From positions 2,426 to 66,425 of the forward strand of contig JAPKAX010000001.1 of the NCBI GenBank assembly GCA_028825025.1: 64,000 nt of DNA, given 5' to 3'. Below the pieces are notes generated by a model. That model was given only the letters and a program-made list of their open reading frames with translations, searched no databases and was not told the origin of the DNA. Of this stretch, positions 645 through 56,309 are shown piece by piece. The stretch is from Rhodospirillales bacterium (lineage in GTDB: Bacteria > Pseudomonadota > Alphaproteobacteria > Rhodospirillales > Casp-alpha2). Each line of letters opens with the position of its first letter. Position 1 is the stretch's first letter. Both the position numbers and the translations under genes were made by a program.

Positions 645-1334
645 ATGTCAAATCTTCTGCGCGCCTTTTTTCCTTCGGCCTTCTGAGAAGTGTTTTTTAA
701 TCAGTACGCCAAAAATGCATGCCTTTAAAATAGGTGACCTGATCCTAACGTCAGAATAGTTCCCCCTTATAATAAAAAAGAAGATGGGAAAGCCACAGGC
801 ACATCCATTGATATGATGGAGCAAATGCTAGGACTTATAGACACAGACTTATAGCGCGAACGCATTACAATTCTAATATGGGCTCACAGTTACCGGGCGC
901 TCCAGAAAACGCCAGGAAGCGTTCTATTTGTTGTGACCCGAACATTAAAACGCGAAAACTTTTTCAATGGGTTAGCCCAGTCACGCAGGCAAAAAATGTT
1001 ACTGGATCATAACACAAACCGATCCAGCCCTATTCATTTTGCGATGCCAAACGAGCTTTAATTTTCTGCAGTCCGCGATGATGCCGCCGGGCAGTTATTG
1101 AGCAAGCTTCCTGGCAAGAAGCGAACCCGCGTCTCGTTGCTAAATGGACAGTTCGAAATCTAGGATCTATACACAAAACTCATAAAGCCCATTTACACCC
1201 TAGCCGGAGGTAAGCATTATTTTGCTTTTTACAAAGACACACCCGAAAGTATTATAAGGCAATTCCAATGCACATTAGACACCCTCGAAGTCAACGACGA
1301 ATATGATTGTATTCTTGCAAAATATTTAAATTGA
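645..1334 (+). pseudogene. Decayed family-3 periplasmic solute-binding protein gene
   Basis: No ORF over 60 aa here. Stitching frames gives MSNLLRAFF.., IVPPYNKKEDGKATGTSIDMMEQMLGLIDTDL*, and a clean C-terminal stretch LAGGKHYFAFYKDTPESIIRQFQCTLDTLEVNDEYDCILAKYLN*. This is a typical SBP_bac_3 layout interrupted by several stops and frameshifts. Confidence 0.55.
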
Positions 1335-1418
1335 TGAAGCGCTCAAAGCTGCTAAACCTTGCTTTACTTATTTAATACATACCGTTCTCACTTTCTAAAT
1401 GCCGGAACCCCTCATCCT

Positions 1419-2321
1419 ATGACCTCCACCCCAGACCACAATCGCGGCATCGTGTTGATGCTTGTTGCCATGGTGTTGTTCACCTTAAACGATGCCATTG
1501 GTAAGTGGTTGGTTGCAACGTATCCGGTGGGTCAGTTGTTGGCAATTCGTAGCTTTGCAGCCTTGGCTGTGTTGTTACCCATCGCGTGGCGCAATGGAGA
1601 TTTAAAGCAGATCATGTCGATCCAACAACCGGGATTACAGGCCCTTCGTTTGGTTTTGGTGATCGCTGAGGTTTCTTGCTTTTACTGGTCAGTTAAGTTT
1701 TTACCCCTAGCAGATGTGTTCATGTTCTATCTGGCATCGCCGCTGTTTTTAACTGCCTTTTCTGTGATTTTTTTACGCGAACATGTGGGTATTCGTCGGT
1801 GGGCTGCACTGGGCGTTGGTTTTTTGGGTGTCATTTTCATATTTCCACCCAGCGATGCCGTCTTATCTTTGCCCGCGCTCGTCGCCCTCGGCGGCAGCGT
1901 TGCATTAGCACTGATGCTAACCCTTACCCGCTCTTTAAGCTCTGGCACCGGCGGGTTAACACTCATTACATTACAAACCTTGGCGGTTGGTTTGGCCGGA
2001 TTATCAACCCTTCCAGTTGCTCCTTTAGTACCTGAATTGGTGTGGGTAACCCCGGACATATTAGATTTCAGCTTGCTCTGTTTGTTGGGCTTCGTCGCCA
2101 CATCCGCCCATTTCATGATGAATTCCGCAGTCACATCAGCACCTTCTGCCGTCGTTGCACCGTTCCAATACACCTCTATTGTTTGGGCTATTATTTTAGG
2201 TTATTTAATTTGGGACGATTTTCCAGAAACTCAAGCGTTTATGGGGGCATCACTAATTGTCGGCAGTGGTTTGTTTGTACTATATCGAGAGCGAAAAAAA
2301 AAGAAACTTAGTTCCCCTTGA
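1419..2321 (+). CDS. DMT superfamily (EamA-like) transporter
   Basis: Ten-TM-like hydrophobic profile. The N-terminal motif GIVLMLVAMVLFTLNDAIGKWL is typical of EamA/RhaT family proteins. I chose the ATG at 1419; the ORF-track start at 1359 is a TTG upstream. Confidence 0.8.
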   Translation: MTSTPDHNRGIVLMLVAMVLFTLNDAIGKWLVATYPVGQLLAIRSFAALAVLLPIAWRNGDLKQIMSIQQPGLQALRLVLVIAEVSCFYWSVKFLPLADVFMFYLASPLFLTAFSVIFLREHVGIRRWAALGVGFLGVIFIFPPSDAVLSLPALVALGGSVALALMLTLTRSLSSGTGGLTLITLQTLAVGLAGLSTLPVAPLVPELVWVTPDILDFSLLCLLGFVATSAHFMMNSAVTSAPSAVVAPFQYTSIVWAIILGYLIWDDFPETQAFMGASLIVGSGLFVLYRERKKKKLSSP

Positions 2322-2404
2322 TTGGTAACCTACATAGGATACATCATTTGAACTAGATTAAAAAATGACCCATAAGGAACGCCCCGATTCTTAACAAACT
2401 CCTA

Positions 2405-2921
2405 ATGTTTTCGCCTATTTTATTTGCCATTGGGTTCCAGTTTTAGTTATCAGCCAAAAGCAACACCCGACGGGTGAACCACCATCCGAACAAGCCCCTA
2501 CTTTCCGTGCCATTAAAGCACAACCAACCACTTTAATCTCCCGTGTTTTGGGTTTTGGCGTCGTTAGCCCCATCTAAAATATGGAATGCCAGCGCATTGA
2601 AGATACGGTTGATGGCATCAACAGTATTCATGAAGTAGCAAGCGTGGTGGTCAACGATTCTATATTGCTGGTAAACTTCATCAAGCATTACCATTGCGAC
2701 ACTAAATCCGTTCCAGATGTTACCCCCAAAGCCAGCCAAGCCCGTTTTCGCGCTGTCTTTTTAGCCTCAGCAACCACCATTGTTGGGCTTATGCCAATGC
2801 GATCTGAAACCAACTTACAAGCGTAAATTCTAATCCCCTTAGTCACAAGTCTCTGTTTAGGGCTTTTGGTTTCAACCGTCTGGTGTTTTTTTTGGTGCCT
2901 GCTGTATATGCTATCTTTTAA
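2405..2921 (+). pseudogene. C-terminal remnant of an RND (AcrB-type) efflux permease
   Basis: Fragments VVVNDSILLVNFI, RFRAVFLASATTIVGLMPM, then LIPLVTSLCLGLLVSTV in another frame, ending VPAVYAIF*. These match the last TM helices of RND permeases. About 900 upstream codons are absent and the frames are broken. Confidence 0.6.
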
Positions 2922-3025
2922 TATATGGGGTGGGCAAAGCTCGATTAAATCTACCTTTACGTCTTGTTGTTGCGATGGCCGGTGTTTATAGAGTTAAGCA
3001 ATACAATCACAAATACTGAGGTCCC

Positions 3026-4191: not shown

Positions 4192-4860
4192 TTATTTCGG
4201 AAACTTTTTCTTTAACACCAAATACAATGGCTTCGCGGATTTTTCTTGAAGGCCATAATGTTTGAGTTGTGTCGCCACGCGGAGCACAGTTGATGTCGTC
4301 TTTATCTCTATTCGATTATCCAAACGTTGCCGCCAATTGGCGTTTATTTTTCCATTAACGACGCCCTCTTTAACGAAGTTATCAATAAACAAATCACTCG
4401 CATAGAAGCCATCCAACCGACCCCAGTCCATCATTCGGAGAACGAATCACTGTGGCTAATTTGAATGGATTTCATTCCATATTTTTCACCAAACAAACGG
4501 TATAAAAACCGACCCGAAGCAAACCTGTTTGATTTTTCGTGCAAATCAGCAATGGTTTCTGTTTTTTATGTTTCGGAAGTCTGAACAACAATTCGGCTGC
4601 AACCAATCGCACCTAACTAAATCGTATTCTTGATGGCTTTCGTCGATGGTCCCGTGATCGTGAAATCAATAGCCCCCTTAATTAGACCTCAACTTTGCCG
4701 TGGTATAGGTAACAAAATATCATTAAAAGGGATACCAGTTCGCTTCTTAATAAACGAAGAAAATCTCCCAAAAAGGCCTTCGTTTTTACCGTCCTTCGTC
4801 ACTCGACCAAAGGGATAAAAATCAATAATTACAAAAATGGCCTTACTTTCAAATACTTGC
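4192..4860 (-). pseudogene. Decayed family-3 solute-binding protein gene
   Basis: Minus-strand stitching gives FGRVTKDGKNEGLFGEIF.., KRTGIPFNDILLPIPRQS, GLIKGAIDFTITGPSTKAIKNTI, ETIADLHEKSNRFASGR, GEKYGMKSIQISHSDSFSE. These are followed by the 80-aa ORF MMDWGRLDGFYASDLFIDNFVKEG. There are at least three frame changes. Confidence 0.5.
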
Positions 4861-5035
4861 ATAATTCTTCATGGAAATACTACGATTAAACTAAGCCCAT
4901 AAATCCACATAAACCTTCGCAGGTACTCACCTTGCATATAACTTAAACATCAATCCAGCATGATCAACATACAACTAAACAGCACTAGTTGAATCATAAT
5001 ACTGTTACGAAATGTAACTGTTCTGACCTATACGA

Positions 5036-7661: not shown

Positions 7662-9212
7662 TTATGTATGACGCTCGACAACCCCATGCGACGTTAGCTT
7701 CATGCCAGTCATTGTGCGTTCATCGTTTTGCATGCGCCACGATAACAACTTTTGCGTATAGACCAACATCTGGGCTGCAAACTTTGGATCATCCGCCAAA
7801 TTGATCAAGTTTTGAGGATCCTTTTCCAAATCAAAAAACAGTGGCGGCAATCCGTTGAAGTGAACGTACTTAAATTTATCATCACGGATCACATTTAAGG
7901 TGCATTGATCCATCGATATACCAAGCGCTTTTTCTATTTTCGGATCATCAACACTCCGGTAATCAAATTCCCAATGCACTTCAGTGCGCCAATCAGCAGG
8001 GGCATCGCCCTGGCAAAAAGGCATTAATGAGCGGCCATCGCACTGGCGCGGTATGTCCGATCCTAACCAGTCCAGTATTGTCGGCATAATATCAACGGAT
8101 TCTGTAAATTGAGATACGCGCGACCCTCTGGATGAGTTTGCATCTCTTCGGGGGTTGCGGATAATTAGGGGGATTTTATAACCTTGATCGAAATAACCGC
8201 GTTTACCAAATAGCCAATGATCACCCAAAAGCTCCCCATGGTCCGACGTAAAAATAATCAAGGTTTCCTCATAGACACCCGTATCTTTCAAGTTTTGAAT
8301 TAATTGCCCAACATAATGATCCACTTTGCTAATCAGGCCATAGTAGGTGGCGCGCACTTGGGCGACATCGTGGTCGTACATATCGTCGCCAATGCTTGGA
8401 TATATCCAATGATCATTCCAGTAACCGTCCTCCTTTAAAGCTTCCCTAATCCACGGATGCGCATGGGCTTCTGCTTCTACTGTTTCAGCCCGAACTGGCA
8501 TAGGCACTTGAGACGCTGAATACATTTTATTATACGGCTCAGGGGCGACAAACGGGGGGTGTGGGCGCAAATAGGACACATGCGCAAACCAACTGTCCGT
8601 TTGTTTGGAAATATATGATTGCACTTTATTAGTCAAAAACGCCGTCATCGAATGATCCGCAGAATATATAGGTGGCGGGAACGTCCGTCCATGGTCATCG
8701 GCATCATGATAATCTGTTAAGTGATAAAAGATTTGGCTCTGCTGCTCTGGTATCTCATAACCCTTCGCTTTCAAATCTTCGATCCACGGCATCATATCAT
8801 CCAACAGCAAGGTTTCAGCCCGAAACCCTGGCAACACGCCTCCATACACAGAGCGGGTCAATTCATCGTGGGACGTCGTTCTTGGGTCTCGGCTGGTATC
8901 AGTGTAGCCAAACAATACTGGATCATACCCCGCTATGTGGGCTTCCAAAGCAATGTTTGAATGGCGCTCATCCAACGGCGTTCCATTTCGGCACGAACGA
9001 TGGTTTTGCAAATACATACCGGTCAGCAAACTGGCGCGCGCCGGGCCGCATGGTGCGCACACCGCATAATGGTTCTCGAAACACACGCTATCAGCAATCA
9101 ACGCATCCAAATGAGGGGTTTTAACGCATGGATGACACATGGCAGAAAGGCAATCAGCCCGCCATTGATCGGCCGTAATTAAAAGAATATTGCGTATCTG
9201 CTGTGTCATCAT
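7662..9212 (-). CDS. Cys-type sulfatase-family hydrolase, phosphonate-monoester-hydrolase (PMH)-like, no signal peptide
   Basis: Start [20 protein letters not shown]. Formylglycine signature [16 protein letters not shown]. Also TSDHGE.LGDH and IPLIIR blocks of the alkaline-phosphatase superfamily. The overall pattern resembles cytoplasmic PMH enzymes rather than exported arylsulfatases. Confidence 0.8.
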
Positions 9213-10304: not shown

Positions 10305-10622
10305 AGTTATTTCCTTAATAGATATAAAGTATATTTCGAACCACACAAAATGTGCAACCCAAGTCAAAACGAGTACATTGTCAGGAATTTAACTAAGCTA
10401 AGCGGCAAACCGATTATTTAGGCAGCCAAACGAATGCAACACGATAAAATGTGTATATACCTTTTTTATCAAATGTCAATAGTTATCGTGATTAAGTTGT
10501 TCTCGCATCAAAGTGATACAAGTCAAATTCAATACTTACATCCAAATAAACATAGCCAAACATTGCACTTTACCGCCAAATTTCCTATTGCTAAGCCAAC
10601 TTTTTTAACTAGGAGAAATTAA

Positions 10623-13486: not shown

Positions 13487-14203
13487 GGGGCTGTACCAGA
13501 TAACACATAAAAAATGTTATCATGGGTATTGTGAGAAAGAGCTGTTTAAGCAGGCATAAACAGGGCCGACTTGTTGAGCATTTTGTTGCTGGAACGACAG
13601 CCAGATGTGCCGCTTCACTTGTTGGTGTAAACTTCAAAACCACCGCCTATTATTTCCATAGGTTACGCGCAATTATTGCCTATAACCTTGAGCAAGAAGC
13701 CGACATGGTTTTCAGTGGCGAGATCGAAGTTGATGCAAGTTATTTTGGCGGCAAGCGCAAAGGAAAGCGTGGTCGAGGTGCTGCAGGAAAAGTCCCGGTA
13801 TTTGAGCTCTTGAAGCGTGGAGAAAAGGTCTACACGAAGGTAATACCTAATGCTTCGTTAGCAACTTTATACCCCATCATTAAGCATAAAGTTGTGCCTG
13901 ACAGCATTGTCTATTCTGACTGCTGGCGGGGCTACAACGTACTGGATGTCTCGGCCTTCAAGCACTTCCGTATCAACCACTCAAAACTGTTTGCAGACAA
14001 AGCTAGTCATATCAACGGAATTGAAAACTTCTGGAATCAAGCCAAGCGTCATATGCGCAAATTTAATGGTGTTCCAAAGGAGCATTTTGGACTATTTTGA
14101 AGGACTGTGAGTGGCGTTTTAACAACAGTGACCCTTCAGCTTAATTAACGCAGTTAAGACAATGGGTTAAAGGTAATTTGAACTAGTTATCTGGTACAGC
14201 CCC
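13487..14203 (+). mobile_element. IS1595-family insertion sequence (small IS1016-like type), 717 bp
   Basis: Perfect 18-bp terminal inverted repeats: GGGGCTGTACCAGATAAC at 13487-13504 and its reverse complement at 14186-14203. Flanked by the 8-bp direct repeat TTAAATTT. Encodes an ISXO2-like DDE transposase. Confidence 0.85.
13522..14186 (+). pseudogene. IS1595-family transposase with a frameshift and a premature stop
   Basis: 192-aa ORF (..EIEVDASYFGGKRKGKRGRGAAGK.., SDCWRGY, INGIENFWNQAKRHMRKFNGV) stops at KEHFGLF*. The expected continuation LKDCEWRFNNSDPSA*LTQLRQWVKGNLN* is in the +2 frame. That is consistent with loss of one T in a T-run near 14092, and it carries an extra in-frame TAA near 14139. 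Confidence 0.8.
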
Positions 14204-14915
14204 TTAAATTTTCTCGAACGCATTCAGTAATAACCTGATTGCGCTCCACATTTATATATGTTTTGAAGAGAGATAACTGAGTATTAAATTGTGTAAAGAA
14301 CAGGTATCCATCAAAGCGCGCAATATGGCAGAGAGCTTCAGGTTCTAATTGTCCGTACAGTTGGTTAATTGCCTTATAAAAATTACACATTCGCATTTCA
14401 ATTTCTTTATCAGGAAATTGTTTATACTTGTCATCCCAGTGATGTTTCTCGCCCGTTGTTAGTGCAAAAGTTTTATCTGCAATATAAGTTCTTTCTCTTG
14501 AATTATTTCGAATATATGCGGCCTTCGCTTGTGCAATAGATTGTGCAACGCCGCTTGGCCTCTGGCTGTGCAGTAACCTCCCCCTTTTAAGCTTTCTCCG
14601 CGAGACTGACCTGAGACAAAGTGTCCACTCGTTTCTGTTCTTTGACAAAAGGTTTTATATGTTCGCCCAAAAAAATTCCTGTCACTGATATAAAGGTTTC
14701 TTTGGGTTGTTTTTCAGAAGCCCTTTGTATTCTTGTGCTATTACTTGTGCTTCTACGAGGCTAGATGCTTCAGGTCTTTTTGCCCAAATACCCCTCTCAC
14801 GTAAGGCATTGGCGAGCGGTACCGGTTCACCATTGTCCTGAACGCATCCTGTTAAAGTTTCTTGAAAACCGTCTTTTGTATCTTTAATTGTTATTTTTAT
14901 CAGACGAATATGCAC
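14187..14915 (-). pseudogene. ORFan reading frame interrupted by in-frame stops (unknown function)
   Basis: The 77-aa (14682-14915, GTG start) and 153-aa (14187-14648, TTG start) ORFs are in the same frame. They are separated only by in-frame TGA and TAA codons. The 3' end runs into the IS right end. No recognisable motif. The region is AT-rich. Confidence 0.3.
14204..14211. repeat. Right copy of the 8-bp target-site duplication TTAAATTT
   Basis: Identical to 13479-13486 and directly flanks the right inverted repeat. Confidence 0.8.
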
Positions 14916-14977
14916 GTCCTACAGCCTGTCCTGTGTATACAAAGGGGTAAAACTTTTTTAAAGCTGCCCATCCACTT

Positions 14978-15190
14978 TTAATATTCTTTTTTAGAATCGA
15001 TTTCAGGAATGCCTTCTTGTTGATCTAAAAAACCGGTTGTTAGCTCAAAAACTTGGTCGGTAATAACTGCTTCTTCTTCATCTTTTTGAGCAATGGCAGC
15101 TTTGGTTTGTGAAATGAGCTGTTGCAGCCGTGTCTCATCAAACAGATCACTCGCCCCAGCGGGGGACATTGCAAAAAAAAATATTAGCAA
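14978..15190 (-). CDS. Small hypothetical secreted protein
   Basis: 70-aa ORF with a hydrophobic N-terminus (upstream frame reads ..IRLLLLIFFFAMSPAGA/SDLF) followed by an acidic helix-like tail. Non-ATG start. No known motif. Confidence 0.25.
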   Translation of the reverse strand: MLIFFFAMSPAGASDLFDETRLQQLISQTKAAIAQKDEEEAVITDQVFELTTGFLDQQEGIPEIDSKKEY

Positions 15191-15226
15191 AAGTAATCGG
15201 ATCGTCAGAGCCTCATTAGCTGCGTG

Positions 15227-16147
15227 TTAGATCGCTCCACCCACGTACGGTTTCAGCGCTGCATAGACAGTCGTATGAATGGGCGTTGGGACGTCTTGTT
15301 GTTTGCCAAATCTGTGGATCGCGCCGGACAGCCATTCGAGCTCCAACTGTCGCCCAGCGATCAGGTCATTTGCTAAAGATGCCATGATCGGGGCGGAGGT
15401 ATCAAGCCACTCCAACGTGCGTTCACAAATATCATCAGGGAACGCGACGTCCATGGCGCGTCCCACCGCAATGGTCTCGGCCATAGCATCGCAATAGACG
15501 CCGCGCATAATCGGGTCGGCGCGGACGACGCTGGTATCGGTTCGGCTGAGCGCGGTTATACATGCGTTTGATGTCATTAATACGAACTTTGACCATAGCA
15601 TCGCCTGCATGTCTGAGCTGACCACGGTTTCAATCCCCGCTGCCTCAAGCGCCTCGGCAAAGGCTTTAACCCGTGGGCTAACAGTCCCGTCAACTTCACC
15701 AAATTCAATTTTGGTTTTCTGGTTGGTCCGCCTGACCACACCCGGCGCTATCAACGATCCCGCCACATAAGCAGCCCCGCCTAAGCTTCGGCCTTTACCC
15801 AAAACGCCATCAACAATAGCCACGCTTTCAACCCCGTTTTGCAACGTGATCACATAGGTGTCGTCGCCCATCATTGGTTTGCATAATTCAGCCGCACTTT
15901 GGGCGTCATACATTTTGACGCAAAACAAAATCGCATCGACCGGGCCAACGGTTGCCGGGTCATCCGTTGCATGGCCCTGGTCGATGGTAAATTCAGAGCC
16001 GCCGAAATCTTCAATCTTTAATCCTTTTTTACGCATCGCCTGCAAATGAGCGCCCCGCGCAATAAAGACCACCTCTTTGCCCGCCCGCGCCAAACACGCG
16101 CCATAGTATGCGCCAATGCCACCAGCACCCATAATTGCTATTCGCAT
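15227..16147 (-). CDS. 2-dehydropantoate 2-reductase family (PanE/ApbA) oxidoreductase
   Basis: 306 aa. N-terminal Rossmann motif MRIAIMGAGGIGAYYG and a C-terminal ApbA_C-type helical domain (..ASLANDL..GR..ELEWL.G). Confidence 0.8.
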   Translation of the reverse strand: MRIAIMGAGGIGAYYGACLARAGKEVVFIARGAHLQAMRKKGLKIEDFGGSEFTIDQGHATDDPATVGPVDAILFCVKMYDAQSAAELCKPMMGDDTYVITLQNGVESVAIVDGVLGKGRSLGGAAYVAGSLIAPGVVRRTNQKTKIEFGEVDGTVSPRVKAFAEALEAAGIETVVSSDMQAMLWSKFVLMTSNACITALSRTDTSVVRADPIMRGVYCDAMAETIAVGRAMDVAFPDDICERTLEWLDTSAPIMASLANDLIAGRQLELEWLSGAIHRFGKQQDVPTPIHTTVYAALKPYVGGAI

Positions 16148-16170
16148 CTAATTTCCTAACGGTATCTTGT

Positions 16171-16983: not shown

Positions 16984-17014
16984 TTTTTATTTTTCCTTAA
17001 ATTTATTGTTTTAA

Positions 17015-17415: not shown

Positions 17416-17550
17416 TCTGTATCTCTATTATCGATAAAATTATACGACAAACATTAGGTCACTCAGAATTAAAGGCGCAATACCTATTTCCTAAACCACA
17501 AAAACGCGTTAAGTTAAGCGCTCAGAAATACTCGATCAAGGGCAGAATAC

Positions 17551-41658: not shown

Positions 41659-43334
41659 CTAACGATCTAAACTTGGCAAGATCAATCCGTTTTTGCGTGC
41701 GCATTCAATAGCAATGTTATATCCCGCATCCGCATAGCACATAACGCCGGTGGTGGGGTCATTCCACAAAACCCGTTTAATTCGCCGCGCCATATCTTCA
41801 GTACCATCACAACAAATAACCATGCCGCTGTGTTGACAAAACCCCATACCAACACCGCCGCCATGGTGAATACTGACCCAGGTAGCACCCGATGCGCAGT
41901 TTAAAAGCGCATTCAAACGTGGCCAATCAGATACCGCATCAGAACCATCTTTCATCGACTCCGTTTCCCGGTTGGGGCTAGCAACAGAGCCGCTGTCTAA
42001 ATGATCACGTCCAATAACTACAGGGGCGGAAAGTTCACCTGACGCGACCGTTTCATTGAAGGCGAGCCCCAACTTATCTCAAACCCCTAAACCAATCCAA
42101 CAAAATCCGTGCAGGCAAGCCTTGGAACGAAATCCGTTTGCGCGCCATATCTAACCAGTTGTGTAAATGTTCATCATCAGGAATGAGCTCTTTAACCTTT
42201 TGATCCGTTTTATAAATATCCTTCGGGTCTCCAGATAACGCCACCCAACGAAACGGACCAACGCCGCGGTAAAACAAGGGGCGAATATAGGCCGGAACAA
42301 AGCCTGGAAAATCGAAGGCATTTTTTTGCCCTTGATCAAACGCCACTTGGCGGATGTTGTTTCCGTAATCCAATGTGGGTACGCCCGCATTCCAAAAATA
42401 GAGCATCGCTTGAACATGTATTTTCATAGATGCACAAGCCCCCGCTTCAAACGCTTTTGGATCACTTTCACGTTTTTCGCGCCATTCTGCTAGGCTCCAC
42501 CCTTGGGGCAAATAGCCATTAACCGGATCATGCGCTGATGTTTGATCAGTCACCATATCGGGCGTAATACCACGCTTAAACATTTCAGGGAAAACGTCCG
42601 CCGCCTTGCCTAACAAACCAACCGATAGGGCGCGGCTTTCGGAGTGAGCTTTGTTTAAAATCGGCATGGCTTCATCAATAGATTTTGCACGCTCATCAAC
42701 ATATTTGGTGCGAATGCGGAAATCAATGCTATCAGGATTACACTCAACCGTGATACACGATGCCTCAGCCATAGTCGCGGACAAAGGCTATGCGCCACCC
42801 ATACCGCCCAAACCACCCGTTAAAATCCATTTACCAGATAAATCGCCACCATAATGTTGGCGCCCAGCTTCAATAAAAGTTTCATACGTGCCTTGCACAA
42901 TGCCCTGTGATCCAATACGAATCCACGATCCAGCGGTCATTTGGCCGTACATCATCAGGCCCCTTTTATCCAATTCATTGAAGTGATCCCAATTTGCCTA
43001 ATGGGGAACGATATTGGAATTGGCAATCAAAACCCGGGGCGCGTCGGTGTGGGCTTTAAACACCCCCGACTGGCTTACCTGATTGCACCAACATGGTGTC
43101 ATCTTCTTATAAAATCTTCAATCCAGCTGCGATTGCATCGAAATCTTTCCACGTTCTGGCCGCCCGGCCAATACCATCATAGACCAGCAATTCGTTGGGA
43201 TTTTCAGCCACCTCTGGGTCCAAATTATTCATCAACATACGAAGCGGGGCTTAGGTCACCCAATATTCTACGTTCAGTTTTGAGCCTCTTGGGGCGCGGA
43301 CTTCGCGGGTATTGTGGCGTAGATTTGAAGACAT
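41659..43334 (-). pseudogene. hutU: Urocanate hydratase, broken into at least four frames
   Basis: The ATG at 43334 (GGAGA upstream) gives MSSNLRHNTREVRAPRGSKLN... ORF pieces 42788-42973 (..[25 protein letters not shown]), 42074-42784 and 41659-42072 (..[31 protein letters not shown]) are collinear with HutU but sit in different frames. Confidence 0.85.
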
Positions 43335-44158: not shown

Positions 44159-45705
44159 ATTTTAAACTCCATTGTTGGTAACACGCCATCACTGAGCAGA
44201 TCGATGAACGCATTGGAACGAACCAGATCATTGCTGCGTTCAATGTCGGGGGCTAGATAACGATCATCACCCAGCGTTGCGACATCTAGGCGCAAGCGAG
44301 CAATTACTTTCTGCAATAGCGCGCTGGTTTTTAAGGGGGCGCGAAATTCAATACCTTGCGATGCGGTCATCATTTCAATGGCAACAATGCGGCCCAAATT
44401 ATCGGTCATATCCAGCAATCTGCGTGCCGCATGACAGGCCATGGAAACGTGGTCTTCCTGATTGGCGCTGGTTGGCGTTGAATCAACTGAACAGGGAGCT
44501 GCCTTTTGTTTGTTCTCACTCATCAACGCTGCGGATGTTACCTCAGCAATCATTAAACCTGAATTTAAGCCGGGGTTGGGCGTCAAAAAAGCGGGAAGCC
44601 CAAAATTCATCGCAGGATCGACCATCAAAGCAATACGGCGCTGACTGATAGCGCCGATTTCAGCAATCGCTAAAGCAATTTGATCCGCCGCAAAAGCCAC
44701 TGGTTCCGCATGGAAATTGCCGCCCGATACGATTGACCCATCGCTTAAAAGGATCAGCGGGTTATCGGTTACGGCGTTAGCTTCAATTTGTAGCGTCCGC
44801 CCTGTTTGGCGCAATAGGTCTATACACGCGCCCATGACTTGCGGCTGACAACGGATGCAATAGGAGTCTTGAACGCGGTCATCATCAAGCCGGTGGGATT
44901 CCCGTATTTCTGATTTATCCATTAAAGCCCGCAACGCATAACCCGCGTCGATTTGACCGGCATGGCCCCGAAGTTGATGGATTTCATCTCTAAAGGGGGC
45001 TGATGATGCCATGATCGCATCGGTTGATAAGGCACCGGATACTAAAGCCGACATGGCACAGCGCCACGTTTCAAAAAACCCTGCCAATGCCAATGCAGTG
45101 GAAACTTGAGTACCATTAATCATGCCCAATCCTTCCTTAGGCCCTAGCACTATGGGTTCTAATCCTGCTTTTTTAAGCGCTTCAGCACTGGTCATTCGTG
45201 CGTCCTGATAGATAGCTTCTCCTTCGCCGATCATGGTCGCAGCAAAATGTGACAAGGGGGCCAAATCACCCGAAGCACCAACCGATCCCTGACCGGGAAT
45301 AACAGGGCTAACGCCTTTTTCTAACATGTTTTGGATATGCTCAATAATTTCCCAGCGCACCCCCGATGCGCCCCGACCCAATGACATTAATTTCAATACC
45401 ATGACCAAGCGAACGATGTTTTCAGATAACGGCTCACCAACGCCACAACAATGGGATAAAATTAAGTTACGCTGTAACTGAGTAGTATCTTCAGGCGGAA
45501 TACGAGTGCTGGCAAGCTTTCCAAAACCCGTATTTACGCCATAAACAGCGGCATCACCATTAGCAGCATCGCAAACAATTTTAGAAGCAGCTTCAATATT
45601 GGGTCGGAAATTTGGGGCCAATTTAACGGCAGGGCTTTGCCAATAAAGAATACCAAGATCGGCTAACGTCACATGGCCCGGTTTCAAAATCATTTCTGCG
45701 GTCAT
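44155..45705 (-). CDS. hutH: Histidine ammonia-lyase
   Basis: 516 aa. MIO-forming [14 protein letters not shown] motif, and YGVNTGFG. Intact frame. Confidence 0.95.
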
Positions 45706-46879
45706 TTCATCTCCCCTCCGGCAATCCGCTGATACAAAGGGTTGAACCCAATTGCGTAACTCAGTTCAACCCGGTTATCGGTATCCCATATGGCTAAATC
45801 ACAGACTATCCCATCGTCGATAGTACCGATAAACCCATCACGTCCCAGTGCTTTAGCCGCATTGCGCGCGATCCCAGCCAAGGCTTCAACCGGGGCCATT
45901 TGGAACAGCGTACAAGCCATATTCATGGCGAGCAGAATTGACGTCAATGGCGATGATCCGGGTTTACAATCATTAGTAATCGCCATGCTAACATCATGTT
46001 TTTGGAACAAATCAAACGGCGGCTGATTAATATCGCGCAAAGAATAATAAGCACCGGACAATAACACTGCCGCCGTCCCTGCTGCTTCCATGGGTTCTAT
46101 TCCAGCTTCGTCCACATGTTCTAAATGGTTCGCCAACAAACCACCGAACTCAGCGGTCAATGCCGCACCACCGAAATTGTTTATTTGTTCAGCATGAAGT
46201 TTTATTGGTAAGTCATGGACTTTCGCCGCTTTAAATACCCAGCGGACCTGATCTATTAAAAACCTAATTCCTTCACAAAACGCATCGACACAATCAGCCA
46301 ACCCCAATTTTGCGATAGCTTGTAATTGGGTATTACATACGTCATCAATATAAGTCTCTTCATCGCCATTCGCTTCTGGTGGTAAAGCATGCGAGTCCAA
46401 ATATATGGTAAGTACCCGAACATCGCGAATGTCAGCCAAATCGCGTGCAGCTTCTAGCATTTTAATTTCAGTTTCTGTATTCAAGCCATAACCCGATTTA
46501 ATCTCAACCGGGGCAAAGATTGATCGATCAACTGCTGTTTGCTTGCTTGGTGGGTTGCGGCTACGGTTGAGATAATTCCACCGTCTGCGTTGGGTATTTC
46601 TTCGTAAGACGCCCCGTTTAAGCGCTTTTCAAACTCTTGGGCGCGTTTTCCAGCATGAACCAAATGGGTGTGGCAATTGATCAAGCTAGGCGTAACCCAA
46701 CGGCCCTCAAAATGGATCTCTTCTTCAACCGGTATATTGGGTAATTTATCATCTGGGCCAACCCAAACAATATTGCCGTTTATACAAGCAATTGCACTGT
46801 TTTCAATAATTCCGTAGCCACTACGATCAATGGTGGCAAATCGAAAATTTTGCCATTCACGGTTGATTTTAATTGCCAT
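45702..46879 (-). pseudogene. hutI: Imidazolonepropionase, split in two frames with an internal loss
   Basis: The N-terminal ORF 46481-46879 (..[14 protein letters not shown]) ends ..[12 protein letters not shown]. The expected [21 protein letters not shown] continues in another frame into ORF 45702-46484 (..KLHAEQ.., DHLEH). The segment normally preceding EIKSGYGL appears shortened. Confidence 0.8.
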
Positions 46880-49081: not shown

Positions 49082-50017
49082 TCACTTTTCCGGCTGAGTT
49101 TTTGTGATAATCCGTTTGGCGAATGCTGTATCAACTTCTTCGGCGGCTTGGGTAATGATTTCAATTTTTAATAACAACGTACGCCAAGCCGATACTTTGG
49201 CGGGCATTTGAAAGTCGGCACGGGACAAGCCAAACTTCCTTTCAGCGATATTAAATGTTGTGGAGAATGTTAAATCCGCAACGCTTAATTAAGCCCCAGC
49301 TGAATAAGGACCCATAGGTATGATCTCTGTCATCCGCTCTAAGCGATCTATCATCAAGTTTGCCGCATCTTGGAAAGCTGTTTCTTCAACTTGATAATCA
49401 GTAACTAACTTAAACAGGGAACGTATCACCGCGGGTCGCTTGCTCGACTAAATAAGCCAATGTCGAATTACAAATTTTTGAGTTCTGGTTATTAAGCAAA
49501 CTAACAATCACATCTTCTTTACCTGTTTCAACCAAAGCATCAGAAACGCTTTCGCTGATTTCTTAACGCAAGGTTATTTCCAAATGATGTTCTTTTGTTC
49601 TCTGGTGGATGATCTTTATGAGATCAGTATCTTTCAGCACGCATGAGTGTGTTAAAATAGGGAAGGCAATCTGAATTGTATCACTGGCTAAATAAATAGC
49701 TAAGGATTAAGGAATATCATCGTAGTCGGCTATTTGATCACTAATCGATTGGCGGATAGAAACTTCAGCTTCTTGAAAAAGTGTCTCTATTACTTTGAGC
49801 ATCAAATCCTTTTCCAATCACTCAGAACAGTTTTCTAGTCTTGAAAAAGGTCTTTAATAACAGTAACCAGCTCATTTTGGCTATGAACCGAGCGATCACG
49901 AGCAAGCTCGATTAAGTATTCAATGTTATTTTTGTGCGCGTCCATTAACTCTATCTTCACCCAAAGCCCCCTGGCTCGGTCTACACGAGATATATATATG
50001 GCCGAAATGACAACCAT
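49082..50017 (-). pseudogene. Decayed DUF2336-family gene
   Basis: Stitched minus frames: ..YLIELARDRSVHSQNELVTVIKDLFQD*, then DLMLKVIETLFQEAEVSIRQSISDQIADYDDIP*SLAIYLASDTIQIAFPILTHSCVLKDTDLIKIIHQRTKEHHLEITLR*EISESVSDALVETGKEDVIVSLLNNQNSKI... This matches the repeated helical pattern of DUF2336 proteins, with many stops. Confidence 0.5.
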
Positions 50018-50099
50018 ATGAACATAACATTGTAATGATATTAATTAATGTAACGGCATCGAAAAAGCAAAAGAACGGAGGGTATGAAGCTCAGCCTTA

Positions 50100-50919: not shown

Positions 50920-52736
50920 TTACCTTTTATACGCCAATACGTTGCATTTTGCGGCCCGGCATATGATCAGCCTGGGCAGAGCGGACTTTTCGCGTTCGCT
51001 CACTTTTGGAACAACAACGTCCCACCAGGCGTCGCCACTTGACCATACATAGGCATTGGTGGTGACGCAAATAAGAGTTGTCCTATCCGTCGTTTTAGCC
51101 GATTTCAGAGCAGCTTCTAAGTCAACAATGCTTTCAACGTTACGGGTTAATGCACCCATAGAAGCGGCGTGTGCGGCAAAATTGACCTTGACCAAATCCT
51201 TAATACGAAAATCTTCCAATTGGTTATTAATTGACTTTACATCTTTAAATTTTTGCAAGCGATTGATCACGCTAAAGCTGCCATTATCGCATACAACAAG
51301 AATAATGTTATGACCCGTCAGTACGGTTGAATAAATATCAAAATTCATCATCAAATACGATTCGTCCTCGCACAGGGCAATCACATCGTGCGATGGGTCT
51401 GCCAATTCACAACACTCCATAATCATAATCATAAGGTTCCCGGTGATTTAATTCACCAGTTTTTATTGAATTCACCCGGCAAACCACCCCCCGCCGTTAG
51501 GACCAAATCATCATCAGCCGCAACCGAATTCTCAACGCTTAACATTTGCGCATACGACATCGGGTTGGCATTGGTTGGCTCTATGGCTTCATCAACGATT
51601 TGGTTCGATGTGACATAAAGCTCTGGCGCGCGTGCCATGTGGATTTCATCGACCCGCCAGTCGCCCAAATTGGCCTCGATTTCACTAAAAAATTCACTGG
51701 CATCACCAATCACCCGCACCGCCCGATGTTTGACCTTATCGAAGCGCACCGCGTTGATCAATAAAAACTGAGCATCTTCAGCAAAAACCGTCCACAAGCC
51801 GGTTGTGAAATCTTACAAACGCGTAACGACCTAAATCAGCAAAAGCGTTAGCAGAAGATGAGCCAACAACACCGACGGGGCCTATGATATTGGGGTAACA
51901 GTGTGTCATGCAGCTCCACCCGGCAATGTTTTCACTAATTGGAATGCCTCGACTTTTGGTAAAATTCATTAACACCTTTTCAGCGCCGGAATAACGCACG
52001 CCGCCGCCTGAAATAATCAATGGTTTTTTAGCACTTTTAAGCAGCTAAACCGCATCGGAAACCGACGCCAAATCAGAACGTTGGCGGGGTATGCGGTGCA
52101 AGGTGGGCTTAAAAAACGCTTAGGGGTAATCAAATGCGCTTTCTTGGATGTCTTGGCACAAGCCAATAAACGCCGGGCTACAATCGGCCGAGCCAACATC
52201 ACAGCAACGGCTTGGAGCAAAGACGATATAATTTGTTCCGGCCCCAATAGCGGGTGACGGCTTTAAAACCATCGTTGACGCTTATTGTTGGGCTATTACA
52301 ATGCTTTGTTTGTTGCAAAACCAGTTCTGTGTCGGCTTGCAAACGAATCGTCAGCAATCAACAACAACGGCAAGCGGTTAGCATGAGCAAAACCCGCAGC
52401 CTTGGTCATGTTTGTAGCACCGGGGCCGATGGAGCTGATAGCGATCATAATTTGGCGGCGCAATTTAGCCTTTCCATAAGCAACGGCGGGCAACGCCATG
52501 GAGTGTTAATTTTGCCCACACCATGTGGGCAATTGGTCCTGCACCCGTTCCAACGCTTCAGCTAAACAGGTCACGTTTCCATGGCCAAAATTGCCAAAAG
52601 CACCCCCAAACAACGGAACTCTTTGTCCATCGATTTCAGTGAATTGGTTACATAAATAGCGGACCAACGCCTGCGCCATTGTTAATCGAACAATGCTAAT
52701 ATATCTTCCCCAAAGTCGTGATGGATCAGCCGTCAA
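50920..52736 (-). pseudogene. iolD: IolD (3D-(3,5/4)-trihydroxycyclohexane-1,2-dione acylhydrolase, ThDP enzyme), heavily fragmented
   Basis: Six collinear ORF pieces (52506-52736 VRLTMAQALVRYLCNQFTEIDGQRVPLFGGAFGNFGHGNV; 52296-52499; 52017-52247; 51778-52020; 51453-51797; 50920-51432 ..DESYLMMNFDIYSTVLTGHNIILVVCDNGSFSVINRLQ..WWDVVVPKVS). They follow the IolD order but lie in different frames. Confidence 0.8.
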
Positions 52737-52793
52737 CTGGATGTATTATAGATATCGTAGCGAATTACTATTTTTGTTTAAAGGGAGTTTAAT

Positions 52794-53789
52794 ATGATCA
52801 AAATGGCGCTTTTTGGCTGTGGTCGCATTGGCCGCTTACATGCCCAAAATATTGCTCAAAACCAAGGCGCTGAACTGATGCAGGTTTATGACGTGCAACA
52901 GCTATCCACTGATCAATTGGCCACCCTTCATAACTGCGAAGCCGCTCTGTCTGTTGCGGCAATATTAGCTAATTCCGACATTGATGCGGTTTTAATTGGC
53001 ACATCAACGGATACCCACGCGGATTTAATAGAAAAATCAGCCAAAGCGGGCAAAGCGATTTTTTGTGAGAAGCCTATTGATTTAAGCCTCGATCGGGTCA
53101 AGCAATGCGAGGCAACAATTACGCCGTATAACGTACCATTTCAAATTGGTTTTAATCGGCGGTTCGACTCCAGCAATAAGTCTGTAAAAAATGCCTTGGT
53201 GACAGGTCAGATTAGTGATTTACAACAAGTTATTATCACATTGCGCGACCCCGAAATGCCCCCCCAAAGCTATATGGAAACATCGGGCGGCATGTTTCGC
53301 GACATGACCATCCACGATTTTGATTTAGCGTGGTTTATGTTGGTGGAAGAACCAACCGAGATTTTTACATCCGCAAGCGCGCTCGTGAACCCCGAAGCGT
53401 GTGCCGCTGTTGGTGACATAGATTCCGCCATGATCCAAATGAAAACCGCATCCAGTAAATTATGTCAAATCAACAATTCCCGCCAAGCCGTCTATGGATA
53501 CGACCAATGGGTTGAGCTTTTTGGTAGTAACGGTATGTTGATTTATGACAACCAACGCCCCCATGACTTAAAATCTTTCAACGCCACTCAAACCGGAAAA
53601 CCTAAACCGTATCAGTCCTTTTCCTTAGAGCGTTACGCAGAAGCTTTTGTTACCGAATTGAACGCTTTTATTGATTGTGTATCTAATAACAAACCAACGG
53701 AAGTTGGATTTGAGGATGGGGCCAAAGCCTTGGCCTTGGCAGAAGCTGCTTATCAACCCTTAGAAACTAGAAAATCCGTTCACCTATAA
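52794..53789 (+). CDS. iolG: Inositol 2-dehydrogenase (Gfo/Idh/MocA family)
   Basis: 331 aa. Contains MALFGCGRIGRLHA and CEKPIDLSL. The length and context next to iolD support IolG/IdhA. The exact substrate is inferred. Confidence 0.7.
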   Translation: MIKMALFGCGRIGRLHAQNIAQNQGAELMQVYDVQQLSTDQLATLHNCEAALSVAAILANSDIDAVLIGTSTDTHADLIEKSAKAGKAIFCEKPIDLSLDRVKQCEATITPYNVPFQIGFNRRFDSSNKSVKNALVTGQISDLQQVIITLRDPEMPPQSYMETSGGMFRDMTIHDFDLAWFMLVEEPTEIFTSASALVNPEACAAVGDIDSAMIQMKTASSKLCQINNSRQAVYGYDQWVELFGSNGMLIYDNQRPHDLKSFNATQTGKPKPYQSFSLERYAEAFVTELNAFIDCVSNNKPTEVGFEDGAKALALAEAAYQPLETRKSVHL

Positions 53790-53806: not shown

Positions 53807-54766
53807 ATGTCTTACACCCCCTTCGAAGATTACCCGGTCAATTTAACCGCCGTCGATATCAGCCCCTACAAAGCGGGTAACACCGGAGTTGACTATATCA
53901 CCACGTTTGATAGTGGCGAGCCGGGTTTGCATGTTATGATATCAGCGATTCTTCATGGCAACGAAATTTCAGGCGCGATCACGCTCGATCATTTGTTAAA
54001 AAAGGACGTCCGCCCCCTGGCCGGGAAATTGAGTTTCGCCTTCGCCAACCCTGAAGCTTATTTGGCCTTTGATCCCAACAACCCTTGGGCAAGCAGGTAC
54101 ATTGACGAAGACATGAACCGCGTTTGGTCGGAAGACGCATTAGGTAGTGGGCGCACGTCGCTTGAACTTGAACGCGCCCGCCAAATGCGCCCAATCATTG
54201 ATCAAGTCGACATGCTTTTAGACCTGCATTCGATGGAACACCCGATCCCTGCAATTATGATGGCGGGCAGGCACGCTAAAGGCCAGCAATTGGTCAAAGA
54301 TATGGCAACACCTGAATTTGTTATATTGGACCGGGGCCACTCTGCTGGCAAACGTTTGCGCGATTATGGTGAATTTGATGACCCCATGAGCGGCCGAATT
54401 GCGCTTTTGTTTGAAGCCGGACAGCATTGGGAAGAAGACAGTAAAATTATTTCCATCGATATGGCGTTGCGGTTCTTAAAGCTGTTTGGGACCATCGACT
54501 TGGATACCTTGATGGATGATCATTTGGAATTACCCGAAGATCAAAACTTGATTGAAATGACCCACCCCATCACCATCGCCACAGACAGCTTCCGTTGGGC
54601 GGATAATTTTACGGGGCTTGAGTGTTTTCAAGATGCAGGGTCGCTTATTGGTTGGGATGGGGATAAAGAAATATGCACCCCGTATGACGATTGCATCCTG
54701 ATCATGCCGAATTCGAGTTTACACAAAGGCGGAACGGCTGTGCGCTTAGGCAAGCAGATTAATTAA
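53807..54766 (+). CDS. Succinylglutamate desuccinylase/aspartoacylase (AstE/AspA, M14-like) family protein
   Basis: 319 aa. Zinc motif ILHGNEISG and the DLHSM block. Confidence 0.75.
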   Translation: MSYTPFEDYPVNLTAVDISPYKAGNTGVDYITTFDSGEPGLHVMISAILHGNEISGAITLDHLLKKDVRPLAGKLSFAFANPEAYLAFDPNNPWASRYIDEDMNRVWSEDALGSGRTSLELERARQMRPIIDQVDMLLDLHSMEHPIPAIMMAGRHAKGQQLVKDMATPEFVILDRGHSAGKRLRDYGEFDDPMSGRIALLFEAGQHWEEDSKIISIDMALRFLKLFGTIDLDTLMDDHLELPEDQNLIEMTHPITIATDSFRWADNFTGLECFQDAGSLIGWDGDKEICTPYDDCILIMPNSSLHKGGTAVRLGKQIN

Positions 54767-54842
54767 AAGTCATTTGCTTATAACGCCGTATATGAGCATC
54801 TTTGTGTCAACAGAATTAAACCCAAACAGGTAGATATAAATC

Positions 54843-55766
54843 ATGAGCACAGACCCCGTTATTCTTCACCATTACCCGCAATCACCAGTCACTGAAAAAG
54901 TCCGGGTGGTGCTTGGAATGAAGGGGTTGAGCTGGAAATCCGTCGATATTCCAAGGCTCCCTCCAAAACCAAATTTAACGGCCCTGACCGGGGGCTATCG
55001 CTTAACGCCTGTGATGCAAATTGGGGCTGATATTTATTGTGATACAAAGTGCATTATCCGTGAATTGCAACGCCGGTTCCCATCCCCAACTTTGTTTCCG
55101 GGCGGAGCCGAAGGCATGGCGTGGGGCGTTGGTGAATGGACGGATGGACCGCTGTTTAAAGACGTTGTGACCGTTGGCTTGGTCGAAATGATACCCAATA
55201 TGCCGCCAGAATTTTTGGCAGATCGGGGCCCGCTTTATTTTGGTGATGGTTTTTCAGTTAAAGATGTCAAAGCTAATTATCATCATTGTTTAGCCAATAT
55301 TCGGGCTCAATTTTGTTGGATGAACGAACGCCTACAAGCCCGCGATTTCATGTTGGGCTTTGAGCCGGGCCTACCAGATGCATTAGCGTACTATTTGGTT
55401 TGGTTCTTGCGCGATCGAATGAACGACGATGGACACTTTTTATCGCAATTTGAAAACCTAATAAAATGGGAACAGCGCGTTAAAGCCATTGGCCACGGCA
55501 CGCCTGAAACCTTTAGCGATTTGGACGCACTAGAGATCGCTAAAAATGCAACACCTCAAAAACCCCAGCAAGCCGATTCCGATGATCCCTTGGGCTTAAG
55601 TATTGGCGATCAGATCAGCATAACACCAGCACACGGTGGCGTATCTGTTCAGGGCGCGCTAAACAGCATATCTGCCAATCACGCGACCCTATTGCGAACC
55701 GACGATTTGGCCGGCGATGTTTGTGTGCACTTCCCACGGGTTGGATACCGAATCACGACTGATTAG
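54843..55766 (+). CDS. Glutathione S-transferase family protein
   Basis: 307 aa. Thioredoxin-like N-domain (LHHYPQSPVTEKVR..LG..G..W..V......P...LT.GYR.TPVMQIG) plus an extended C-terminal domain. Confidence 0.7.
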   Translation: MSTDPVILHHYPQSPVTEKVRVVLGMKGLSWKSVDIPRLPPKPNLTALTGGYRLTPVMQIGADIYCDTKCIIRELQRRFPSPTLFPGGAEGMAWGVGEWTDGPLFKDVVTVGLVEMIPNMPPEFLADRGPLYFGDGFSVKDVKANYHHCLANIRAQFCWMNERLQARDFMLGFEPGLPDALAYYLVWFLRDRMNDDGHFLSQFENLIKWEQRVKAIGHGTPETFSDLDALEIAKNATPQKPQQADSDDPLGLSIGDQISITPAHGGVSVQGALNSISANHATLLRTDDLAGDVCVHFPRVGYRITTD

Positions 55767-55863
55767 AGGTTTATCATACATCAATGCGGCAATCCCCTAA
55801 GCCTGCTATACATAAACACTCATGCATAGTCGACGATCCATCATCTGATTGAAGGAGGGAAAT

Positions 55864-56309
55864 ATGTTTGCGAATCCATCATTGGTTACACGCATAGCCA
55901 TGGAAAAGGGCTTGGCTTCATTGGCGGCTTAAGTGACTTTATACTGCTGCCTTATTTGTGGCCCAAAGGTGATTTGATGACGCGCTGGGGAATTTTGCTT
56001 TGGTACACAACGTTTGGTGCCATTATTGACGTGTTTGGCGTCTTCACGTGACATCCGATATTGCTGCTCTCAATGCCGTGGTGGTTCCTAGTCGTTGTGT
56101 TGGGCGCGTGGCTCAATTTCGCCATTAGGTTTTTCACCCTTGATATCATGAGCGCCATGCTAACATCGACCTTTGGCCCAAATGGTTTTTTTCTATCGCC
56201 TCACTGGTTTGTTTTAGAAGGGGCGGCCTTTGGCCTTTTGATCGATTATGTAGCAACCAAGTTTGGTGGCGAAGGTAAACAAACCATGCATGATCAATCC
56301 GAAAGCTAA
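55864..56309 (+). pseudogene. Frameshifted small membrane-protein gene (unknown family)
   Basis: ATG at 55864 gives MFANPSLVTRIAMEKGL.. The next frame gives GFIGGLSDFILLPYLWPKGDLMTRWGILLWYTTFGAIIDVFGVFT*. The third piece is the 82-aa ORF 56061-56309 (MPWWFLVVVLGAWLNF..). The pieces are collinear hydrophobic segments in three frames. Confidence 0.3.

Follow-up and report, generated by a model that had tools for sequence, protein, structure and literature searches.

Old, neutrally evolving gene remnants and the loss of signalling genes in a genomic region of an uncultured marine Rhodospirillales lineage

Bacteria whose restriction to a host is recent, such as Mycobacterium leprae and Sodalis glossinidius, carry massive pseudogene loads, and the luminous symbionts of anglerfish are reportedly to be grouped with them. 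Such bacteria have a known host, underwent a strong bottleneck, and often show expansion of insertion sequences (IS). Within the Rhodospirillales, Candidatus Endolissoclinum faulkneri is a tunicate symbiont with a very low coding density. Other reduced genomes are those of ocean-water bacteria. Streamlined genomes such as those of SAR11 and Prochlorococcus are defined by a very high density of coding sequence and a near absence of pseudogenes; they also have few signal-transduction genes and a lowered guanine-plus-cytosine (GC) content (see also PMC10837832). CHUG and the Pelagic Roseobacter Cluster are marine alphaproteobacteria with a GC content ~8-10 points under that of sister groups, and they have lost chemotaxis and motility-type interaction genes; this loss has been ascribed to relaxed purifying selection following a lifestyle shift (bioRxiv 10.1101/2021.01.15.426902). 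CHUG has ~91.7% coding density and ~3.9% pseudogenes, the same as its relatives, and marine roseobacters, reduced pelagic lineages included, have ~90% coding density and 3-5% pseudogenes (bioRxiv 10.1101/2021.01.15.426902). Here, we describe a 64-kb stretch of DNA, hereafter the window, from a metagenome-assembled genome (MAG) of an uncultured marine Rhodospirillales bacterium. Some 17 genes of this window are non-functional remnants that are fixed in the wild population and evolve neutrally, and every recognised gene of two-component signalling, chemotaxis, and cyclic-nucleotide signalling is among them. We think it likely that the window is a piece of the core chromosome of a low-GC clade engaged in long-running reductive evolution.

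Only 66% of the window is occupied by intact genes; remnants take up 23%, and the remaining 11% is other spacer. Pseudogenes make up ~27% of its gene-like features. The lineage resembles CHUG and the Pelagic Roseobacter Cluster in being marine, in its lowered GC, and in the loss of chemotaxis genes; unlike in CHUG, nearly a quarter of the window still consists of visible dead genes that have not yet been purged. It likewise shares the ocean-water origin and the lowered GC of streamlined genomes and, judging from the window and its flanks, may share their scarcity of signal-transduction genes, but with such a fraction of remnants its state falls outside the definition of classical streamlining. 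Like recently host-restricted bacteria, it is rich in pseudogenes and sparsely coding, at least in the region covered; it has lost genes for sensing and motility, keeps old pseudogenes, and loses pathways stepwise. It differs from them in having no known host, substantial diversity, efficient selection, and a single dead IS fragment. The likeness to Ca. Endolissoclinum faulkneri is by description only: the order is nominally shared, and decay is extensive and coding density low in both, but the symbiont is obligately intracellular and has a much smaller, more AT-rich genome. Reductive evolution that leaves many pseudogenes and abolishes sensing is already known as a phenomenon; the window shows it in a new, apparently widespread uncultured marine lineage, for which the contrast with a sister species is unusually informative.

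The evidence for decay comes first from the population. Proteins of the window (MDE0991568, MDE0991594, MDE0991620) recur as exact sequences in JGI, ENA, Logan, and Tara data, and such exact-protein matches provided ~25 contigs of the same species (designated, like those of relatives, by L numbers). Samples, studies, and assemblers vary among these contigs (MEGAHIT k119/k141, SPAdes NODE contigs, SPIRE-style scaffolds); their identity to the window is 98.9-99.8%, and the lesions of the window recur in them. The 120 best GuaB homologs include none from a cultured relative. Single-nucleotide polymorphisms (SNPs) number 3.6-3.8 per kb in intact genes, 10.9-14.4 in remnants, and 12.4-15.6 in intergenic DNA (intact genes vs remnants, Fisher p~1e-92). 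There is no indel column in 183 kb of aligned intact genes and there are 37 in 61 kb of aligned remnant; the ratio of non-synonymous to synonymous polymorphism (pN/pS) is 0.17 in the former and 0.73 in the latter; and SNPs that change a stop codon number 3 and 15, respectively. Because the lesions are common to independent contigs, and because SNP densities are those of intergenic DNA, indels accumulate, and pN/pS is near neutral, the remnants are real, fixed in the population, and essentially neutral, and the preference of the first-pass annotation for genuine decay over consensus errors was justified. Reassignment of a stop codon is ruled out: TAA, TAG, and TGA all occur as in-frame lesions and all end intact genes.

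Second, a sister species (contigs L006, L031, L033, L111-113, and L117-125; GuaB 96% identical; gene identity ~94-95%; 45.6-46.9% GC) allows the same regions to be followed across a split marked by ~16-18% neutral divergence. Nucleotide identity between the two species is 92.4-98.1% in genes (93-97% in most of them), 82-89% in remnants, and 75-88% in intergenic DNA, bar one spacer of 93.7% upstream of cspA/ilvD.

Third, the functions of dead and living genes differ. Pfam annotation of every window open reading frame (ORF) of at least 100 amino acids (aa) gave 45 intact genes. Among them are a housekeeping set (recQ, hpt, cspA, an IlvD/Edd dehydratase gene, trhO, ppx, rlmE, guaB, rsmB, and a peroxiredoxin gene), numerous transport and metabolic genes, and three one-component regulators, namely an IclR, a HutC of the GntR/UTRA type, and a LysR-type (OxyR-like) regulator adjoining the peroxiredoxin. 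Pfam finds no HisKA, HATPase_c, Response_reg, GGDEF/EAL, cyclase, or PAS domain in these intact window genes, and no intact gene for a kinase, a receiver, a methyl-accepting chemotaxis protein (MCP), a cyclase, or a PAS protein occurs within the 64 kb. All seven signalling genes that can be recognised are dead, compared to 11 dead and 45 intact among the others (Fisher p=5.8e-5), so that signalling is the most consistently lost class of genes in the window (7/7 vs 11/56). The first-pass annotation had drawn the same line, with all seven signalling genes broken and the housekeeping genes and one-component regulators intact.

To recognise remnants, the stop-free six-frame fragments of every gap were joined by X and searched against Pfam; frame-corrected conceptual translations were also profile-searched, single fragments were compared with NCBIfam and PDB, and intact orthologs from relatives were added to the comparison (Table 1). 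HisKA, HATPase, MCPsignal, Guanylate_cyc, and PAS_5, the families predicted beforehand, were all matched, one of the two PAS_5 genes via the other remnant. The four nonsense codons singled out earlier (SRI*TGN and FAQAC*GSDV in the kinase, AAKGN*VIV in the cyclase, EVKNS*DQL in an MCP) are present exactly, the last being polymorphic among strains. The PAS-histidine kinase has accumulated at least four frameshifts, two TAA codons, and a replacement of the phospho-acceptor histidine by asparagine (H-box MSNKLRTPL), and a 5-bp indel in it is polymorphic in the population. The tail of the second kinase has 28 SNPs/kb. The cyclase remnant has 27.7 SNPs/kb and four indel columns; its tail is 82.4% identical to the sister species, vs 95% in the neighbouring genes, and its TAA is GAA in the sister, which carries other stops and frameshifts there. 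Among relatives we found no intact cyclase ortholog. A conserved ORF of 426-431 aa between the carbonic anhydrase and DsrE genes of two relatives (L007 10764-12059, L008 3355-4635) was considered as a homolog and ruled out, being unrelated to the cyclase remnant; in the window the remnant fills this slot on the opposite strand, and the content of the slot has therefore been replaced.

The PAS_5 remnant has 21.7 SNPs/kb, and the PAS_5-like remnant a pN/pS of 2.7. The latter is flanked by 22-bp direct repeats, the first of which contains the stop codon of a 2-hydroxyacid dehydrogenase gene. In the sister species (L006) there is a single repeat copy and exactly the intervening 755 bp are gone; either the segment was excised there by repeat-mediated deletion or it had earlier been inserted with a target duplication. 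One chemoreceptor gene, MCP1, retains an ORF of 290 codons. It nevertheless behaves as dead, because its pN/pS is 1.34 (with 15 SNPs/kb) and because the normally invariant hairpin tip reads IVAAC instead of IEAAR in all strains. Its premature TGA (39009-39011) is polymorphic: TGA in the window, L011, and L016, TCA in L014, GCA in L013, and ACA in L015. Four states at one codon are unusually many among contigs that are ~99% identical. MCP2 had been noticed as an MCP remnant beginning at 41104; alignment with an intact 358-aa homolog moves its start to 40705. It is 82.1% identical to the sister species, with four indels.

The comparison of the two species shows that the remnants were inactivated at different times relative to their split. 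The cyclase, MCP2, hutI, and iolD genes were dead at or before it, because the identity of their remnants to the sister species is at the intergenic level (84.3% for the N-terminal part of hutI, 85.0% for that of iolD). Where both species retain a remnant, the lesions are different. Other deaths postdate the split: hutU in the window species, which is intact in the sister, and a sulfatase and an NTP-transferase in the sister. The sulfatase gene (7662-9209) is intact and constrained in the window species, and in the sister it is a pseudogene (89.0% nucleotide, 79% amino-acid identity) whose frameshifts vary by strain (L117, L119, L120, L122, L125); its loss looks recent and still polymorphic. 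The NTP-transferase gene, which lies a little beyond the window, is in separate pieces in the sister. Of a second IclR, one sister strain has an intact copy, whereas a 95-aa stump is left in the window species. Deletions are found on both sides. The sister species lacks 755 bp with the PAS_5-like segment, 768 bp of hutI, 1,177 bp with the kinase and methyltransferase remnants, and 3,053 bp spanning DUF2336, a gene of the SDR family, and most of iolD; the window species has lost ~1.33 kb more of an RND pump remnant than its sister. Remnants are removed slowly, in deleted segments of 0.75-3 kb, one or more of which lay between short direct repeats, and the alignments show a decay that is old, ongoing, lineage-specific, and reciprocal between the two species. 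The first-pass annotation had suggested, as an example, a lineage at an early-to-middle stage of host restriction or niche narrowing, and such a stage is hard to fit to remnants that were dead before a split of this depth.

Base composition follows the state of the DNA. The window has 46% GC as a whole; genes stand at 48.4%, remnants at 44.5%, and spacers at 37.5%. SNPs polarised with the sister species as outgroup include 206 changes from GC to AT vs 88 from AT to GC, so that equilibrium GC would lie near 27%. We propose a process that would involve 1) the abandonment by the clade of two-component signalling, chemotaxis, and cyclic-nucleotide signalling, which would have ended selection on signalling genes; 2) the stepwise failure of catabolic pathways after one member is hit, as may have happened with hutI and then hutU, and with iolD; and 3) AT-biased mutation under weak deletion pressure, which would turn dead genes into AT-rich spacer and thereby lower GC from ~57% to 46% and coding density to 66%. 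Behind the decay could lie a shift to passive planktonic life or to an unrecognised host association. The earlier picture of decay focused on sensing stands insofar as signalling was hit hardest; it is too narrow in that genes of histidine and inositol catabolism and of transport, and the sulfatase in the sister species, decay too.

A number of points weigh against the interpretation of the window as core chromosome in long-running reductive evolution. First, all the evidence on pseudogene load and on the content of che, fla, and kinase genes is drawn from one genome region, ~82 kb with flanks. Second, the signalling category was drawn up post hoc, and it includes PAS_5 proteins, which have no demonstrated sensory role. 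Third, three MCP1 alleles are without the premature stop. Fourth, iolD and DUF2336 have a low diversity of 2-3 SNPs/kb, and population data alone are insufficient to establish their neutrality. Such data say little about these two genes because both sit in a low-diversity stretch at 49-53 kb; the low value belongs to this stretch and is not demonstrable constraint, and we count both genes as dead because their frames are disrupted and because they are diverged or deleted in the sister species. Fifth, AT-biased mutation is, to our knowledge, nearly universal in bacteria, and alone would be no explanation of the drop in GC.

We infer that the pattern extends genome-wide. A more far-reaching proposal, which we make tentatively and which may well prove too broad, is that genome-wide decay has long been under way in a widespread ocean clade to which the window species, its more abundant sister, and one or more other low-GC relatives would belong, with about two-thirds of the genome coding, a quarter of its gene-like features pseudogenes, GC lowered by about 10 points, and dead genes that outlast speciation despite large diversity and efficient selection. 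If this were true and the cells were free-living, nature would here provide an example of genome reduction that is rich in pseudogenes and yet independent of a host; streamlined plankton are postulated to descend from ancestors in such a state, which is rarely observed. If it were true and the cells lived otherwise, a symbiosis in the plankton that has gone unrecognised would be indicated. The wider interest hinges on the genome-wide load and on free-living status. Models of marine genome reduction disagree on whether selection for economy or relaxed selection with drift is the driving force, and testing them is difficult, since most reduced lineages have already shed the genes in question. 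In the window, the intermediate stages can still be read, and remnants can be set against their counterparts in a sister species. Natural populations can therefore be used to measure which genes died first (e.g. hutI before hutU), how large deletions are and how they arise, how mutation is biased, and how far losses favour signalling genes. The annotation of MAGs is affected as well: gene callers split the remnants into small "proteins" (fragments of HATPase_c, Urocanase_C, and MCPsignal), and if these were annotated at face value the sensory and catabolic abilities of the organism would be overstated.

The alternative that survives best is that the clade is host-restricted, for example as symbiont of a planktonic eukaryote, and decays by drift under a small effective population size. 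This would account for local values (~27% pseudogenes, 66% coding) so far from those of marine roseobacters (3-5% and ~90%), for a GC ~10 points below that of relatives, for the loss of chemotaxis and signalling genes, and for old pseudogenes being kept rather than purged. However, the lineage was recovered from many bulk ocean water metagenomes, Tara included; a neutral diversity of ~1.1-1.5% and the pN/pS of 0.17 in intact genes denote efficient selection, and they are suggestive evidence against a small effective population size; IS expansion is absent from the 64 kb, which hold one truncated, dead IS1595 fragment and no repeated elements; and transporters and catabolic genes of the kind found in free-living heterotrophs are kept under constraint. 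For these reasons host restriction, which had been offered at first pass as an example of what might relax selection, is not supported, and we regard it as unlikely, if still a serious competitor.

It could also be that decay is local, the window being a degenerating accessory region or island in an otherwise ordinary genome. The ~82 kb covered contain one IS fragment, and their gene order is unlike that of the high-GC relatives (L007, L008, and L114; 53-57% GC, 72-76% nucleotide identity, GuaB 88% identical). Yet the remnants are interleaved with recQ, hpt, guaB, rlmE, rsmB, and ppx across the window and both flanks; the relative with 88% identical GuaB is syntenic over AstE-GST-ppx-rlmE-guaB-rsmB-prx-oxyR but compact; and the intact genes share the drop in GC (48% vs 57%). 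The ~18 kb of flanks, known from population contigs, follow the pattern of the window: a piece of a third MCP, 111 aa long, is found there, as are receiver domains cut short to 96 and 81 aa and the C-terminal remainder of an IclR. Coding density in the relatives is high, 90% in L114 (called genes) and 84-87% in L007 and L008 (coverage by ORFs of at least 100 aa), and they carry an intact 555-aa hutU and the intact 358-aa MCP homolog. L114 has in addition an intact chemoreceptor gene of 594 aa (15642-17426; HAMP, MCPsignal, and weak PilZ) directly after oxyR, a position at which the window has only a 415-bp spacer and the GST gene. A further relative, L032 (HutH 86% identical), has a low GC of 45% and is without hutI. 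Decay confined to an island is, in the light of these comparisons, improbable, and the MCP and receiver fragments of the flanks, together with the intact MCPs of the high-GC relatives and the seven dead genes of the window, uphold the earlier proposal of relaxed selection on sensing.

A third alternative would be that the split hutU, hutI, iolD, and MCP1 genes still function, through multi-subunit products, programmed frameshifting, or readthrough. The two hutI ORFs overlap by 4 bp, SNP density is low in iolD and DUF2336, and three MCP1 alleles run to the natural stop. But the junction of hutI misses ~10 conserved residues, deletions in the sister species have taken most of hutI and of iolD, the hutU pieces have a pN/pS of 0.55-0.65 with stop-changing SNPs, and MCP1 has its elevated ratio and a hairpin tip that is degenerate in every strain, all of which makes function of the split genes very improbable. 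The hutU lesions are two 1-bp homopolymer insertions (42102 and 43063) relative to the intact gene of the sister, to which it is 91.0% identical, and the gene has 15.7 SNPs/kb in the population.

Finally, it is scarcely credible that errors in assembling or polishing a MAG, or the collapse of strains in it, produced the lesions and that the cells have intact genes, since, even if both hutU frameshifts lie in homopolymers and the window differs from all six other contigs at 36742 and 49813, the same lesions recur in ~25 contigs across samples, studies, and assemblers, many of them are nonsense codons, truncations, or kilobase deletions, and sequencing errors cannot yield neutral SNP densities, near-neutral pN/pS, and intergenic-level divergence from a sister species. 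At 36742 and 49813, both in non-coding or remnant DNA, the window is one base short; these could be private alleles or small assembly errors of the window. Deletions in L012, L018, and L019 (in MCP1, hutH, AstE, and the membrane ORF) that were taken for strain polymorphisms proved to be 100-N scaffold gaps. Such gaps mimic deletions in L001, L012, L018, and L019 (17036-17354, ~27130-27180, 38692-39174, 44470-44889, 54246-54500, and 56128-56393); two lie inside the intact hutH and AstE, and several lie in remnants or spacers, where strain variation perhaps breaks assembly.

Table 1. Gene remnants and associated features of the window, in order of position.
Feature	Position	Strand	Evidence
Family-3 solute-binding protein remnant	645-1334	+	SBP_bac_3 E=0.013 (weak), profile 10-130/132; 3 in-frame stops in frame 738-1331
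RND (AcrB-type) pump, last ~95 codons, rest deleted	2405-2988	+	ACR_tran profile 928-1017/1021 at 2644-2907, in-frame stop
Decaying DNA; label of second family-3 solute-binding protein unproven	4192-4868	-	84.7% identity to sister species, equal to intergenic level
IS1595-family transposase fragment, C-terminally truncated, 192 aa (13522-14100)	13504-14100	+	DDE_Tnp_IS1595 profile 3-136/153
PAS-histidine kinase remnant, N-terminus missing	18204-19098	-	HisKA and HATPase_c (Pfam)
S-adenosylmethionine (SAM) methyltransferase, C-terminal half, in-frame TAA	19050-19505	+	60% identity to residues ~140-272 of full-length homolog P0001
22-bp direct repeats TG(T/C)GGATTTGTAAGGACAAACC around PAS_5-like segment	25306-25327, 26061-26082	+	Degenerate third copy 26011-26032
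PAS_5-like gene, one frameshift near 25475	25345-25866	-	End-to-end alignment with 29046-29561 remnant, E=9e-7
Membrane class III nucleotide cyclase remnant	26794-28010	-	Guanylate_cyc profile 9-143/183, in-frame TAA
HATPase_c tail of second histidine kinase	28718-29101	-	HATPase_c profile 6-110/111, two in-frame stops
PAS_5 remnant over three frames	29046-29561	+	PAS_5 E=0.0015, profile 8-133/137 after frame correction
Spacer mislabelled as TauD head	30615-31027		8.9 SNPs/kb
MCP1, short degenerate MCP-like gene	38139-39089	+	MCPsignal profile 11-161/172
MCP2 remnant, internal deletion and frameshift	40705-41612	+	Residues 4-196 and 256-347 of intact 358-aa homolog, two frames
hutU (urocanase), three frames	41659-43320	-	Three pieces vs intact 555-aa ortholog
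hutI (imidazolonepropionase), two pieces split at ~46484-46510	45702-46879	-	N-terminal piece matches PDB 2puz residues 18-139
DUF2336 remnant, several frames and stops	49082-50099	-	DUF2336 profile 1-83/262
iolD remnant, at least 4 frames	50920-52750	-	TIGR04377 63-120, 222-289, 310-425, 453-600 of 616; four colinear fragments
Small membrane-protein gene, in-frame TGA 56049-56051	55830-56309	+	Sister-species comparison only

Homology in Pfam, NCBIfam, PDB, or intact orthologs supports 15 of the 18 remnants listed by the first-pass annotation, and comparison with the sister species one more, the membrane ORF; two labels, a second solute-binding gene and the head of a TauD-like gene, did not hold. 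The membrane ORF is 88.5% identical to the sister species, near the intergenic level, and its TGA is TGG (tryptophan) in the sister, which has two other stops and a frameshift there. The segment at 4192-4868 has 16.7 SNPs/kb plus indels and no family match in Pfam or NCBIfam. The solute-binding remnant at 645-1334 has 23 SNPs/kb, and a comparison of both segments with the intact SBP_bac_3 gene at 29886-30614 gave nothing significant (E<=1). The TauD label was rejected because the segment has no match in Pfam, in NCBIfam, or in an intact TauD paralog just outside the window, and in a set of 1.84 billion representative proteins it matched nothing except its own 63-aa ORF. A protein search at E<=0.001 with a chimeric query of five remnants retrieved the methyltransferase homolog alone and had no match for the other four parts, which were 4192-4868, the membrane ORF, the PAS_5-like remnant, and the TauD candidate. 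The RND tail is 89.0% identical to the sister species. The IS1595 fragment has a pN/pS of 0.56, and its site is empty in the sister.

Some observations concern the remaining DNA. The window has no transfer RNA genes and no RNA families by Rfam. Four long spacers of 415-1126 bp (14101-15226, 16984-17550, 23863-24361, and 62775-63189) have no recognisable homology and may be remnants past recognition; the last two are 86.1% and 88.1% identical to the sister species, the intergenic rate, and the first contains an ORF of 153 aa (14187-14648) with no family match and a pN/pS of 0.93. The spacer at 10305-10622, between cspA and the IlvD/Edd gene, is the one whose identity of 93.7% exceeds the 75-88% of the others; it had no match in an Rfam search, and its conservation suggests a non-coding element, e.g. 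a cspA leader. In the GFO/IDH/MocA (iolG-like) gene at 52794-53789, 16 polymorphic sites are non-synonymous and one is synonymous, and 13 SNPs at 53000-53499 lie in a single contig, L022; this could be a recombination tract or an assembly problem of L022, or early relaxation with its iolD partner dead. At the left edge of the window, the first ORF (1-547, AIRC family) is truncated; the left flank of L027 and L028 shows it to be the last part of a gene of 220 aa. This gene belongs to a cluster of LarA, LarC (Ni_insertion), and AIRC (LarB-like) beside a SelU-like gene, which looks like the set for the nickel-pincer cofactor of lactate racemase rather than like purE.

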